Shown in pieces: positions 43,690-57,069 of a DNA stretch of 64,000 nt (positions within the stretch are counted from its first letter, which is position 1; every line of letters starts with the position of its first letter). Origin of the DNA: an uncultured Methanosarcinales archaeon (lineage in GTDB: Archaea; Nanobdellota; Nanobdellia; Woesearchaeales; GW2011-AR9); the NCBI GenBank assembly GCA_964344235.1, contig CAYFMJ010000002.1:32001-96000 (forward strand). The letters run 5' to 3'. The notes beneath the pieces are model-generated. The model was not told where the DNA came from. It searched no databases and saw only the letters and a list, made by a program, of their open reading frames with translations. The position numbers and the translations under genes were made by a program.

Positions 43690-46014
43690 TTAGCGCGTAA
43701 TCACATAGATATTGAACATATCATTCTCTATTTGTGGGGCCGGAGGAATGTATTCTTCTGGTGTTACTGTAACGTGCCATTCTTTAACGATTGTATCTCT
43801 GCCATCGCTGACTGAGAGGCGAACTTTCTTCTTACCGGGTGTTGTAAATGTTCGTTCAACAGTGTCTGTGCCTTTTACCCTTCCTTCACGCGCACTGAAA
43901 GTCCACGTGTATTTGAGTGGATCGTTGTCGGGGTCTTTAGCAGTTGCATGGAAGATTGTTGGCTCATTTTGCTTTACCGTAATTTCTGTTTGGGGTAAAT
44001 AATCGAGGATTGTTGGCGGCTGGTTAGTATTTTTAATCGTGACTTTTACAGGATAATTTACTGTTGTTGTTCCATCAGAGGCAACGAAACTTAACCAGAC
44101 AACCGCTTTCTCTTTACTTAGTTTTCTGTTGAGATAGGATGAAGAACTAATGAAATTGTGCCAGGCGCTATCTGTTTTTCCAATAGCGCTATTGAATTGA
44201 GGTACCCATGTAAATGTGCCATCAACAAATGAAGCACCGGGTGGGATGTTCTCTAAGACAATGTTGAGGTTATCGTTATCTGGGTCGGTTGCAGTTACGT
44301 CTATTGAAAATTCTTGCCCTTCATTTACTGTGATTGTATCGTCTTTTATTTTTATTGAGGGCTCTCTATTTTTTTGGTGGACTGTTAATGTTATTGTTGA
44401 GCTGTCTGAAAATTCTCCATCAGACGCTGTTACATTTACCTGATACACTCCTGCAGCCTCGTAGTGAGTTTCCCACTTGCCTGTTTTCTTGTGTACTGGA
44501 TCTGAGAATGTATAACGGATGAAATCACCATCGGGATCCACTGCAGTTGGTTGGATGGATACGGTTTCTGTTTCCGTTACGTTGATTGGGGATGTTGATT
44601 GCAGAATTGGTGGGCGATTAGTGTTGTGAACAATAACATTTACGGTGCCAACGGAGCATAATGATTTATCGCACACTTCAACGTGAAGTGGTACGGTTTT
44701 CTTTTTCAGTAAGAATTTTTCTAACCCAAATGCGCTGAGGAATGTTGTAAAAGCGTTGTCTTTTCGTTGAATTGTAGTGTAATCGGGTTTCCAAGTAAAT
44801 GTTTTCTTTTTTTGGTTCAATTTTGCGTTAAGTGGCGTGTTGGTGATAGAAATTTCAATGTCTTCTTCGTCTGGGTCGTAGGTTTCGATTATCCAGGAAA
44901 GTTCTTCGTTTTCATATGCACTAAGTAAGGATGGTAAAATTAATGTTGGGGCTCTGTTCACGTTAAGTACAGTGATTGGAATAGTGATGGTGTCTGTAAA
45001 CTCTCCATCAGATGCAGTTACTATGACCGTGTACTCGCCTGCATCTTCGTAGTTGGTCTGCCATTCACCATCTTCGTTTAGCAGGTCTTTGTATGTATAG
45101 GTTAGCGCGTCTCCATCAATGTCAGTTGCTGGAAGATTAAGTGTAACTTTCTCATTTTCGTGTACAATAATTGGAACATGGGAGACTTCTGGTTTGCGGT
45201 TTTCATTTTCAATTGTGATTACCCATTCTCTAGTCTCAGTATTTATGCCATCACCTACGACAAGTTTCAATGTGTACTCCCCGGCACTACTGTGGTCAAA
45301 GTAATGAGCGCCACTTAGTTTTGTTGTTATTTCTTTTTCGTTTAATAACCAAGAATATGTAATTGGGTCGTCGTCGTTGTCCTGTGCTTGTACTGAAAAT
45401 TCAACCGTGCTATCTTCAACGAAGGATAATGCTGTTTTAGTAGAGAACATTTGGGTTATCGTTGGGGGTTGATTTTTATCAAGAACTTTTATTTCAACCT
45501 GAAACCTCTCATTGAACTCGCCGTCGTTTGCATGAAATACAACTGTTTGTGAACCGGCGTCATTGTATCCTGGTTGCCATTCCCCCTCTTTATTAAACGG
45601 CGGTGTGAAAGAATAAATAAGGGCGTCATCATCAGGATCTTGTACTAATTCTTTAAGATTGATTGTTTCTTTTTCTTGTGCAGAGAGTTTGTTTTTGACT
45701 AAAAATGGTGGCTGGTTGGTATTCTTTACAATGATTGTGACGTCTTCTGTTGTCTCTGATGTGCTGTCAGAGGCAGTAATGGTTACGTCATACGTTCCAG
45801 CGTCATCATAGTCTGTTTGCCATTCGCCCTCAGCGTCGAGGGGTGGTGTGTATGTGAATGTAATCTTGTCGTTGTCCACATCCACAGCTTCCGGCTTGAT
45901 CTTGACAAAGTCACCTTCAGAAACTTCAAATGTTCTTGTGGCAGCAAATACTGTTTGAACAATAATGAGGATAGAAATGAGTGCGAGAATAATGGTTATG
46001 GTCTTTCTATTCAT
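43690..46014 (-). CDS. Secreted protein with about 8 Ig/cadherin/PKD-like repeats
   Basis: Signal peptide; repeated DPD.D..TY and W.T.Y.DAG.Y.V..TASDG...N.N..P motifs. Confidence 0.88.
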   Translation of the reverse strand: MNRKTITIILALISILIIVQTVFAATRTFEVSEGDFVKIKPEAVDVDNDKITFTYTPPLDAEGEWQTDYDDAGTYDVTITASDSTSETTEDVTIIVKNTNQPPFLVKNKLSAQEKETINLKELVQDPDDDALIYSFTPPFNKEGEWQPGYNDAGSQTVVFHANDGEFNERFQVEIKVLDKNQPPTITQMFSTKTALSFVEDSTVEFSVQAQDNDDDPITYSWLLNEKEITTKLSGAHYFDHSSAGEYTLKLVVGDGINTETREWVITIENENRKPEVSHVPIIVHENEKVTLNLPATDIDGDALTYTYKDLLNEDGEWQTNYEDAGEYTVIVTASDGEFTDTITIPITVLNVNRAPTLILPSLLSAYENEELSWIIETYDPDEEDIEISITNTPLNAKLNQKKKTFTWKPDYTTIQRKDNAFTTFLSAFGLEKFLLKKKTVPLHVEVCDKSLCSVGTVNVIVHNTNRPPILQSTSPINVTETETVSIQPTAVDPDGDFIRYTFSDPVHKKTGKWETHYEAAGVYQVNVTASDGEFSDSSTITLTVHQKNREPSIKIKDDTITVNEGQEFSIDVTATDPDNDNLNIVLENIPPGASFVDGTFTWVPQFNSAIGKTDSAWHNFISSSSYLNRKLSKEKAVVWLSFVASDGTTTVNYPVKVTIKNTNQPPTILDYLPQTEITVKQNEPTIFHATAKDPDNDPLKYTWTFSAREGRVKGTDTVERTFTTPGKKKVRLSVSDGRDTIVKEWHVTVTPEEYIPPAPQIENDMFNIYVITR

Positions 46015-46063
46015 TGTAATTCCTCATGTAGTTTTGTTGGTGTTATTTGAAAAAGAAAAAAAT

Positions 46064-47044
46064 TTATTGTAGAGAAACGCTTACAATTTCTGGTGGCATG
46101 TTTACATCGCTTACTGTAAGCTTAACATGCTTTGTAACGGTGTCTTTACCATCGTCTGCTGTTACAGTTATGGTATATTCTCCGTGGTCGGTGAAACCCG
46201 TTTCCCAAACACCATCATCACCAACTGGTTGACTGATTGTTAACGATACGTCATCGCCATCCAAGTCAGAGATTGTTGGTTTAATTGTGATAGTTTCCCC
46301 TTCCTGAACACTGATTGTTGATTCGATGTTTTCCAGAACAGGAAGTTCATTCACATCATTGATTGTTAAAGTGAATGTTTCCTCAGAGCTGAGTTCACCA
46401 TCGTCTGCAGTGACTGTGATACTATACTCTCCGGCACTGGTGTGGTCAGTGGCAAAGGTCCCACTTTTTAATGGTTCAGAGATAGAGACTGTTACAGCGT
46501 CGTTGTTTGGATCATTAACTGTTGGTTCGAAGTTGATTACTTCCCCTTCTTGTACCGAGAGATCTCTAATTCCTGTTAATACCGGTGGAACGTTTACTCG
46601 CTCTACGATAATGCGGATTTGTTTCGTTGTTGTTAATTGTCCGTCAGTAGCGGTGAGAGTAACCATGTACTCCCCTGCATCGCCATAGTGGGTTTGCCAT
46701 TCCCCTCGGTCGTTTACTGGAGGGGTGAAAGTATATGTTACCGGATCTTGGTCGGGGTCAGTTACATCAACATTTAATCTAACTAAACTATTTTCTTTTA
46801 CAAAAATTTCTTGCGCCTCTGTTGATTGTGTTTCTTCTAGTTCTGGTAGGATCACATCTTCTTCAACAACAAGGTCTTCCTCTTCTTGCTCCTCTAAACC
46901 TAATTCCGCTTCAATTTGCGCAATCTCATCAATGAGATCAGTATTTTCTGTTTCCTGCGGAACATCGTATGCTTTGTAGTCAAGACACCCCACTAGAAAT
47001 ATGAACATTAATATTACAGAGATAGTAATCACACTTTTTTTCAT
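46064..47044 (-). CDS. Lipoprotein with three Ig/cadherin-like repeats
   Basis: FLVGC lipobox-like motif, acidic linker, WQTHYGDAGEY / FATDHTSAGEY / WETGFTDHGEY repeats. Confidence 0.85.
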   Translation of the reverse strand: MKKSVITISVILMFIFLVGCLDYKAYDVPQETENTDLIDEIAQIEAELGLEEQEEEDLVVEEDVILPELEETQSTEAQEIFVKENSLVRLNVDVTDPDQDPVTYTFTPPVNDRGEWQTHYGDAGEYMVTLTATDGQLTTTKQIRIIVERVNVPPVLTGIRDLSVQEGEVINFEPTVNDPNNDAVTVSISEPLKSGTFATDHTSAGEYSITVTADDGELSSEETFTLTINDVNELPVLENIESTISVQEGETITIKPTISDLDGDDVSLTISQPVGDDGVWETGFTDHGEYTITVTADDGKDTVTKHVKLTVSDVNMPPEIVSVSLQ

Positions 47045-47192
47045 TCAAATACACCCCACTATTACCTATTTGTAAGTATTCTCGAATGACAACTCGTATT
47101 TAAAGATTTAGTGGGGAGAGAATATATAGTGTAGTGGTTGAGTGTGGCTCCACGATTTGTTGGGGAATATAGCGGGAAACTTTAGAAAAGTA

Positions 47193-47320
47193 TGGCCCCG
47201 CCGTGATTTGAACACGGGACCTTTATCGGAATCAATTGATTCTCACGATAGCTGACTTAAGTTGATATCAGTGTCGCATCCTTGCGGATCGTGCGCTCTA
47301 CCAAGCTAAGCCACGGGGCC
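47193..47320 (-). tRNA. tRNA-Ile(GAT) with three introns (30/31: 47289-47273; 37/38: 47265-47250; 43/44: 47243-47223)
   Basis: Acceptor GGCCCCG/CGGGGCC+A, D arm, T arm CCGTG-TTCAAAT-CACGG; removing three BHB introns gives a 74-nt tRNA with CACGA-CTGATAA-TCGTG. Confidence 0.9.
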
Positions 47321-47354
47321 GTGACTTCGAAGAATTGAGGCCTATTTTTAAACG

Positions 47355-56948: not shown

Positions 56949-56996
56949 GGTAGAAGTAAAGAGATTTAGTATATAAAGTTAACTTAAAGAGAAAGG

Positions 56997-57069
56997 TGGG
57001 TTCGGTGGGACTTGAACCCACGACTTCCAGATCTTCAGTCTGGCGCTCTCCCAACTGAGCTACGAACCC
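56997..57069 (-). tRNA. tRNA-Phe(GAA), no intron
   Basis: GGGTTCG TA GCTC AGTTGGGA GAGC G CCAGA CTGAAGA TCTGG AAGTC GTGGG TTCAAGT CCCAC CGAACCC A. Confidence 0.97.

Follow-up and report, generated by a model that had tools for sequence, protein, structure and literature searches.

Disrupted and multi-intron tRNA genes form a field that has been reviewed previously (PMC4090602). In Thermoproteales, tRNA genes with several introns (up to three) have been described, including 'nested' introns (Sugahara et al. 2007/2008, as cited in PMC4090602 and PMC3728597), and in some archaea, according to the account of Sugahara et al. 2008 given in PMC3728597, the BHB motif of the last intron forms only once the others have been processed. 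The nuclear tRNA-Ile(UAU) gene of Cyanidioschyzon merolae also carries three BHB introns, located in the D-stem (12/13), at 37/38 and in the T-arm (53/54); RT-PCR revealed that the 37/38 intron is the last to leave, after introns 1 and 3, whose own sequence of removal may be either way round, and the order as a whole follows BHB free energy (PMC3728597, PMC9602550).

Among DPANN archaea, disrupted tRNA gene sets occur together with EndA enzymes of the alpha4 or epsilon2 type (Kaneta et al. 2018, PMC5829648; Fujishima et al. 2011, PMC3239211). For DPANN lineages, a Woesearchaeota genome among them, many non-canonical and multiple introns and incomplete tRNA predictions are reported (PMC5829648, PMC3239211), and Woesearchaeota are among the lineages that combine an alpha4-type EndA with many disrupted tRNA genes (PMC5829648). 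Broad EndA specificity has been linked to the inserted loops L1-L3 (PMC5829648, PMC3239211).

Identity and organization of the gene

The locus analysed here lies in a window of 64,000 nucleotides (positions 32001-96000 of contig C2) from assembly G000, which comprises 1.19 Mb in 37 contigs with 39.4% G+C and is 96% complete. The Rfam tRNA model RF00005 matches positions 47193-47320 of the window (minus strand) with 41.5 bits, against a gathering score of 29. Removal of three BHB introns from this 128-nt gene, which has no encoded CCA, leaves a 74-mer that ARAGORN reads as a perfect tRNA-Ile(gat) cloverleaf, with a 7-nt anticodon loop, CUGAUAA, containing the GAU anticodon, U33 and A37.

The gene consists of four exons and three introns, all on the minus strand. 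Exon 1 (47290-47320), delimited by alignment to the intronless ortholog L022, comprises tRNA positions 1-30, i.e. the 5' strand of the acceptor stem, the D-arm, G26 and C27-G30. Intron 1 (47273-47289, 17 nt) is located at site 30/31, between G30 and A31; it was defined by the BHB parse and is conserved with compensatory changes in 15 orthologs. It is followed by the 7-nt exon 2 (47266-47272), which spans A31-A37 and contains the anticodon, by intron 2 (47250-47265, 16 nt) at the canonical site 37/38, as placed by the BHB parse, and by the 6-nt exon 3 (47244-47249), which spans A38-G43. Intron 3 (47223-47243, 21 nt), at site 43/44, was delimited by the BHB parse and the orthologs, and exon 4 (47193-47222) comprises A44-A73, i.e. 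the variable loop, the T-arm, the 3' strand of the acceptor stem and the discriminator A. Exons 2, 3 and 4 were assigned from the parse and the spliced product.

The intronless ortholog reads exactly CACGA-CUGAUAA-UCGUG-AGGUC, the predicted spliced anticodon arm and variable region, and differs elsewhere from the spliced G000 product only by compensatory changes in the acceptor and T-stems and by one D-loop base. Because L022 defines the same junctions, the exon boundaries are independent of the BHB model. The locus is in all likelihood a functional tRNA-Ile(GAU) gene, and the original prediction of a three-intron gene was confirmed. Its isoleucine identity was borne out by the Rfam match, the perfect spliced cloverleaf and the orthologs, its intron lengths and sites by the BHB parse and L022, its two micro-exons by the parse, and its mature sequence by the identical stretch in L022.

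The default ARAGORN run missed the gene at 47193-47320. With introns allowed, the program called a tRNA-Ala(cgc) with a single 33-nt intron; this call was rejected, as removal of the three BHB introns yields a perfect tRNA-Ile that matches the orthologs. Read from the sequence, a TATA-box-like element, TTTAAAAATA (47343-47352, minus strand), whose centre lies about 28 nt before tRNA position 1, is a putative archaeal promoter, and a TTTT run (47186-47189, minus strand) located 4 nt past the discriminator base is a putative terminator. The upstream neighbour of the gene is a minus-strand deoxynucleoside kinase ORF. Directly downstream, at 43690-47044 (minus strand), two adjoining ORFs of 774 and 326 aa contain PKD, bacterial Ig and cadherin-like repeats, and probably encode surface or adhesion proteins.

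tRNA complement and splicing enzymes of the host

No second tRNA-Ile(GAU) gene was found in the 96%-complete assembly; a 13-nt stretch at C1:213955 that matches the anticodon arm proved to lie in ordinary coding-like sequence and is not a second gene. Because no other copy is detectable in the assembly, the copy at 47193-47320 must decode both AUU and AUC. For the whole genome, only 9 tRNAs were called at Rfam significance and 15 by ARAGORN, which at this level of completeness implies that introns or other disruptions conceal most of the tRNA genes. An uninterrupted tRNA-Phe(GAA) scoring 75 bits, at 56995-57069 (minus strand) of the window, is among the few tRNA genes of the genome that lack introns, and a second, interrupted Phe(GAA)-like call was made by ARAGORN at C6:12973-13080.

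An EndA of 200 aa with N-terminal and catalytic domains (PF02778 and PF01974) is encoded on contig C13 (L039:1474-2076, minus strand). It provides the only PF01974 match in the genome; no second EndA subunit was detected there, and a divergent beta subunit is possible. The best PDB match is 1a79, the M. jannaschii homotetramer (E 1.5e-37), and the alignment is gap-free across the catalytic domain. The enzyme thus matched appears closest to the M. jannaschii type, from which we infer its probable subunit composition and substrate range. An RtcB ligase is encoded on contig C6 (578 bits). The presence of a single M. jannaschii-like EndA beside many non-canonical introns is unlike the usual association of broad specificity with inserted loops or extra subunits.

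It had also been suggested that the same introns be sought in other tRNAs or genomes as a sign of intron transposition. A blastn-short search of the whole assembly with the three introns returned only the introns themselves and short chance matches, i.e. no copies elsewhere in the genome, at the low power that queries of 16-21 nt afford.

Structure and conservation of the BHB motifs

Each strand of a BHB motif was laid out as outer helix, 4-bp central helix, 3-nt bulge and inner helix. The central helices of introns 1, 2 and 3 (CGCA/UGCG, CUGA/UCAG and AUCG/CGAU) are all formed by four of four Watson-Crick pairs and flanked by 3-nt bulges, and the three motifs share nucleotides, so that the perfect pairing and the overlap proposed from the sequence were both reproduced by the parse. 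In intron shuffles, the chance of a perfect central helix together with an inner helix at least as long as that observed was 3e-5, 1.7e-3 and 1e-5 for introns 1, 2 and 3, respectively. Cleavage was placed after the second bulge nucleotide (marked below by a hyphen), in the register set by orthologs with unambiguous junctions, such as L012.

In BHB 1, the central helix is formed by C25-A28 and intron nt 12-15, the bulges are CG-A and AC-A, the inner helix is UCC/GGA with a GCAA loop, and the outer helix pairs A23 and G24 with C32 and U33. The central helix of BHB 2 joins C32-A35 to intron nt 11-14; its inner helix is reduced to 1 bp, and its outer helix is the anticodon stem. In BHB 3, A38-G41 pair with intron nt 16-19, the bulges are UG-A and AA-A, the inner helix is GAAUC/GAUUC, and a weak outer helix is formed by GCU, from the tail of intron 2, and G45, G46 and U47. 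The use of C32-U33 in the outer helix of intron 1 and of A38-G41 in the central helix of intron 3 had been anticipated correctly. The further proposal that the tail of intron 2 serves as the outer helix of intron 3 holds, with 3 bp, in genes of the G000 and G004 types only; it was rejected as a conserved feature, the helix being limited to 1 bp in the other orthologs.

The central helix of BHB 1 was retained in all 15 orthologs first examined, being perfect in 12 and containing one A-G mismatch in 3. Its inner helix, of 3-6 bp, exhibits compensatory changes (UCC/GGA, UCCA/UGGA, UUCA/UGAA, UCUC/GAGA, GUUC/GAAC and others), and one compensatory change was identified in the central helix itself, as in L105 exon G26 is replaced by A and the pairing intron C by U. 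For BHB 3, the central helix AUCG/CGAU is present in seven of seven orthologs, and the inner helix covaries (GAAUC/GAUUC, GGA/UCC, GAACU/AGUUC, GGC/GCC). The central helix of BHB 2 is perfect in the G000 and G004 types only, with 2-3 pairs in most orthologs, and the motif of most orthologs is, as judged from these sequences, one that would lean on the 5-bp anticodon stem as its outer helix.

Distribution of the introns in the family

BLAST of the gene against 40 related genomes retrieved orthologs of very different lengths. The gene was collected from the whole GTDB family (114 genomes), and each copy was aligned to the intronless reference by an intron-tolerant dynamic programme. A parsed gene was obtained for 72 family genomes, whose orthologs share the same anticodon arm; six are intronless, 26 have one intron, 24 have two and 16 have three. 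The expectation that triple-intron tRNAs would be rare outside Thermoproteales is therefore wrong for this lineage. Five intron sites are recurrent in the family (the D-loop, 30/31, 37/38, 43/44 and 59/60), and the exact layout 30/31 + 37/38 + 43/44 was identified in 7 of the 72 genomes. A pattern search with the exons and two introns, run on one genome per prokaryote species, returned 16 records, 10 of them titled Candidatus Woesearchaeota, five being third-party MAGs labelled 'uncultured Methanosarcinales' and one an archaeon MAG; this assigns the host to the DPANN archaea of that group, in line with its match to same-family genomes.

The orthologous tRNA-Ile(GAU) gene of Candidatus Woesearchaeota archaeon ETNP3_MAG_14 (JASMCJ010000028.1; L051:5033-5201, minus strand) contains four BHB introns, of 25, 13, 17 and 40 nt, at 30/31, 37/38, 43/44 and 59/60, respectively. 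To our knowledge, three introns are the usual maximum given in reviews for archaeal tRNAs, and a limited literature search found no case of a four-intron archaeal tRNA. The T-loop intron at 59/60 recurs in other genomes (e.g. L032, L066, L095, L097, L114 and L115) with a conserved BHB, UUCA/UGAA, for which the T-stem is the outer helix; the copies range between 18 and 90 nt in length, and some are thus long enough for a structured RNA.

In the genera g6, g56, g57, g60 and g67, congeneric species differ in their tRNA-Ile intron sets, and the sequences of their 37/38 introns are unrelated. These within-genus differences point away from gradual drift and suggest that whole alleles were replaced or that gain and loss were rapid and coupled. 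In one pair of congeners, the 37/38 intron of L073 (G115) is 52 nt long, and its last 16 nt are identical to the 16-nt 37/38 intron of L089 (G116). This end segment resembles the G000 37/38 intron and is preceded by a hairpin-forming stretch, as if a second module had been inserted.

Geometry and energetics of the splicing order

The nucleotides used by BHB 1 (23-33) and BHB 3 (38-47) make these two motifs mutually compatible, because each takes one strand of the anticodon stem. BHB 2 requires an outer helix between 27-31 and 39-43, in addition to 32-35 for its central helix, and it excludes both BHB 1 and BHB 3. Intron 1 interrupts the 5' strand of the anticodon stem, while intron 3 does not interrupt the stem and competes for its 3' strand only.

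For every splicing state, the cost of a BHB core was computed as the free energy of forcing the central helix to be paired and the bulges to be open (ViennaRNA, 37 C); these energies are nearest-neighbour predictions that disregard the actual growth temperature as well as proteins and modifications. The predicted cost in the primary transcript was 0.7 kcal/mol for BHB 1, 1.2 for BHB 3 and 6.6 for BHB 2. The cost of BHB 2 decreased to 5.2 kcal/mol after loss of intron 3, to 3.4 after loss of intron 1 and to 2.2 after loss of both, and that of BHB 1 would rise to 4.1 kcal/mol if intron 2 left first. In the primary transcripts of 15 multi-intron orthologs, BHB 1 and BHB 3 were predicted to cost 0.3-3.6 kcal/mol and BHB 2 5.8-14.4 kcal/mol. 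BHB 3 is cheap in every splicing state, and the place of intron 3 in the order is for this reason not fixed.

The order originally proposed, with introns 1 and 3 removed before intron 2, was therefore upheld in part. Removal of intron 1 before intron 2 is supported, at the level of prediction, by the geometry, by the folding energies of this gene and the 15 orthologs, and by the covarying intron-2/D-arm helix described below. Removal of intron 3 before intron 2 would be only the more probable route and not a necessity: the claim that intron 3 must leave first is not supported as a general rule, since this intron leaves the stem uninterrupted and its removal is predicted to lower the cost of BHB 2 by only ~1.3 kcal/mol. 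In one metagenome scan, no match was obtained to precursors retaining intron 2, whether introns 1 and 3 were still present or already gone.

Predicted pairing of intron 2 with the D-arm

When the 128-mer is folded without constraints, the minimum-energy structure contains BHB 1 together with a helix specific to the precursor (z = -3.7 versus shuffles). The 5' strand of this helix (47299-47313, minus strand) is formed by tRNA positions 8-21, i.e. 15 nt with 17a counted, corresponding to the 5' strand of the D-stem and the D-loop; the 3' strand (47253-47267, minus strand), termed here the 'anti-D-arm', comprises U36, A37 and intron-2 nt 1-13. In the predicted fold, intron-2 nt 6-13 are the partners of positions 8-15, and U36, A37 and intron-2 nt 1-4 those of positions 17-21 (six nt with 17a), giving a helix of 14 bp stacked on the 2-bp outer helix of BHB 1. 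When RNAalifold was applied to seven three-intron orthologs, BHB 1 and BHB 3 were recovered; the D-arm/intron-2 helix was not recovered from the same seven sequences, whose divergent intron 2 cannot be aligned by MAFFT. Because of this divergence, the helix was assessed gene by gene, by duplex, shuffle and swap tests.

In the gene studied here, the duplex has a predicted energy of -12.8 kcal/mol (shuffle p 0.002-0.007). Among the distinct genes with a 30/31 intron (n = 21), the best duplex of the D-arm 5' half with U36, A37 and intron 2 has a median of -14.7 kcal/mol (z -3.2 versus shuffled introns, with p<0.05 in 86%), whereas genes with a 37/38 intron and neither a 30/31 nor a D-loop intron (n = 36) have a median of -7.3 kcal/mol (z -0.3, p<0.05 in 17%). 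The difference between the two groups is significant in a Mann-Whitney test that was not corrected for relatedness (p 2e-8), and the comparison is only partly controlled for phylogeny; within genera, the 30/31-bearing gene had the stronger duplex in all five genera that hold both gene types. In each of the 21 genes with a 30/31 intron, the cognate D-arm outperformed other D-arm variants, by a mean of -3.9 kcal/mol, even though the 37/38 introns of these genes are only ~50% identical to one another. The 30/31 intron is always accompanied by a 37/38 intron (17 versus 0, compared with 42 versus 13 among the remaining genes; Fisher p 0.03).

By these sequence comparisons, the 37/38 intron of 30/31-bearing genes is complementary to the 5' half of the D-arm and covaries with it, which argues for selection on the pairing itself, and the pairing is predicted to extend the outer helix of the intron-1 BHB. 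With native instead of shuffled intron 2, the cost of BHB 1 was lower in 20 of 21 genes. The effect was modest (median 1.4 versus 2.8 kcal/mol), and BHB 1 may thus form without the helper helix. Complementarity to the D-arm was also observed in some genes without a 30/31 intron (L113, L014, L067 and L074). It is present in two of the three genes in which the 43/44 intron is the only flanking intron, and two of these three have a minimum-energy fold in which the D-arm is paired to intron 2 and BHB 3 is displayed.

Proposed splicing pathway and alternative explanations

The explanation that best accounts for these data, and that we consider probable, is that of a functional gene whose precursor adopts a non-cloverleaf fold with intron 2 paired to the D-arm, and from which introns 1 and 3 are removed first and intron 2 last. 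Starting from the observed gene, introns, motifs, conservation and intron-2/D-arm covariation, we infer how the precursor folds, in which order it is spliced and by which enzymes, as follows. The primary transcript would most likely be an open, rod-like structure in which the 5' half of the D-arm, positions 8-21, is base-paired to U36, A37 and nt 1-13 of intron 2. Such pairing would free the 3' strand of the D-stem and the 5' strand of the anticodon stem for BHB 1, and the 3' strand of the anticodon stem for BHB 3. BHB 2 would be blocked at this stage: the anticodon stem, which serves as its outer helix, is interrupted by intron 1 and sequestered by both neighbours. Introns 1 and 3 would then be cut in either order by the single alpha-type EndA, and the exons joined by RtcB. 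The anticodon stem and the D-stem could subsequently zip up and displace intron 2 from the D-arm, whereupon BHB 2 would appear and intron 2 would be removed last. With this order, the 7-nt and 6-nt exons would never be released with both ends free at the same time. The association of the pairing with the 30/31 intron is cited for this mechanism, together with the precedent of the C. merolae tRNA-Ile(UAU), from which the non-canonical introns are removed before the 37/38 intron (PMC3728597).

A more specific reading, to which we give even weight for and against, is that the 37/38 intron acts as a cis-acting 'anti-D-arm' splint, which coevolves with the D-arm, holds the precursor open, extends the outer helix of BHB 1 from 2 bp to ~16 bp and keeps the anticodon stem unzipped for the 43/44 intron. 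If so, the flanking introns would depend on the 37/38 intron for their excision, the splicing order would be built in, and loss of the canonical intron would be barred for as long as its neighbours remained. An archaeal tRNA intron would in that case have a concrete function and a reason to be retained. Both the splint role and the removal of intron 1 before intron 2 are backed by the comparative data.

It is conceivable, if rather unlikely, that the gene and its three introns are real but have no built-in order, with EndA cutting any BHB that forms transiently and the tRNA body holding the pieces together. The D-arm complementarity would then have no purpose, serve to delay cloverleaf folding or modification, or be a relic of introns that arose or travelled as one allele. 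This explanation is consistent with the perfect central helices of all three motifs in this gene, with the low cost of BHB 1 even when intron 2 is shuffled (only ~2.3 kcal/mol), with the accessibility of BHB 3 in every state, and with the difference in whole intron sets between species of one genus, which fits an exchange of whole alleles. However, the predicted population of BHB 2 in the primary transcript is ~1000-fold below that reached once introns 1 and 3 are lost, and likewise in the 15 orthologs; most orthologs have an intron-2 central helix of just 2-3 pairs, so that the motif relies on an intact anticodon stem, and the complementarity to the D-arm is maintained by covariation. It is far less plausible that the locus is a decaying or non-functional tRNA gene whose introns are insertions that are never removed. 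The failure of default ARAGORN, the Ala(cgc) miscall in its intron mode and the modest Rfam score of 41.5 bits might be read in this way, but no other tRNA-Ile(GAU) gene was found in a genome of this completeness, exact BHB motifs are found at all three junctions, which are set independently by the intronless ortholog, the layout is kept in seven family genomes with compensatory changes, and splicing yields a perfect cloverleaf. The ordered pathway with intron 2 removed last is therefore preferred over both alternatives.

Significance and comparison with known systems

The distribution of the tRNA-Ile introns indicates that a multi-intron tRNA architecture is common in a DPANN family, beyond Thermoproteales, and the gene illustrates how, in such genomes, essential tRNAs come to be overlooked or wrongly assigned by standard finders. 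The intron-D-arm covariation tied to the 30/31 intron suggests that introns within one tRNA can be interdependent, and such interdependence would give a tRNA intron a function and account for the ordering of splicing and the protection of micro-exons. It may also explain how an apparently M. jannaschii-like EndA could handle introns at odd positions, with the RNA rather than the enzyme supplying the strict motif. A three-intron gene with ordered removal of nested archaeal tRNA introns is of a kind that is already known (PMC3728597). The covarying intron-2/D-arm helix tied to the 30/31 intron is provisionally regarded as new, as no helper intron or covarying intron-D-arm helix was found in a limited literature search, in which the Thermoproteales work was covered through citing papers.

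Like the Thermoproteales genes, the gene described here contains, at canonical as well as non-canonical sites, several short BHB introns that lack ORFs, and as in their nested introns the overlapping motifs imply an order, with splicing by EndA and a ligase, as predicted here. Unlike those genes, it resides in a DPANN (Woesearchaeota-type) host with one alpha-type EndA instead of the crenarchaeal (alpha-beta)2 enzyme, and its canonical intron carries a covarying segment complementary to the D-arm, a feature that sets it apart from the Thermoproteales introns as these are described in the citing papers. The C. merolae tRNA is likewise a three-intron isoleucine tRNA, with the order of removal established there by RT-PCR and proposed here from sequence and models alone. 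It is eukaryotic, however, with introns at other positions and motifs that fold independently ('not nested'), whereas the three motifs here share nucleotides, and no helper pairing between an intron and the D-arm has been reported for it (PMC3728597, PMC9602550). As in other DPANN archaea, tRNA predictions for the host are incomplete (9 Rfam and 15 ARAGORN calls in a 96%-complete genome). In contrast to the loop-inserted EndAs of that group, the EndA here is gap-free relative to 1a79 in the catalytic domain, and no such insert was seen in this alignment, in which the L3 site is only loosely mapped. The two DPANN studies (PMC5829648, PMC3239211) cover the disrupted tRNA gene sets of such lineages and do not describe this gene, its family-wide variation or the helper helix.
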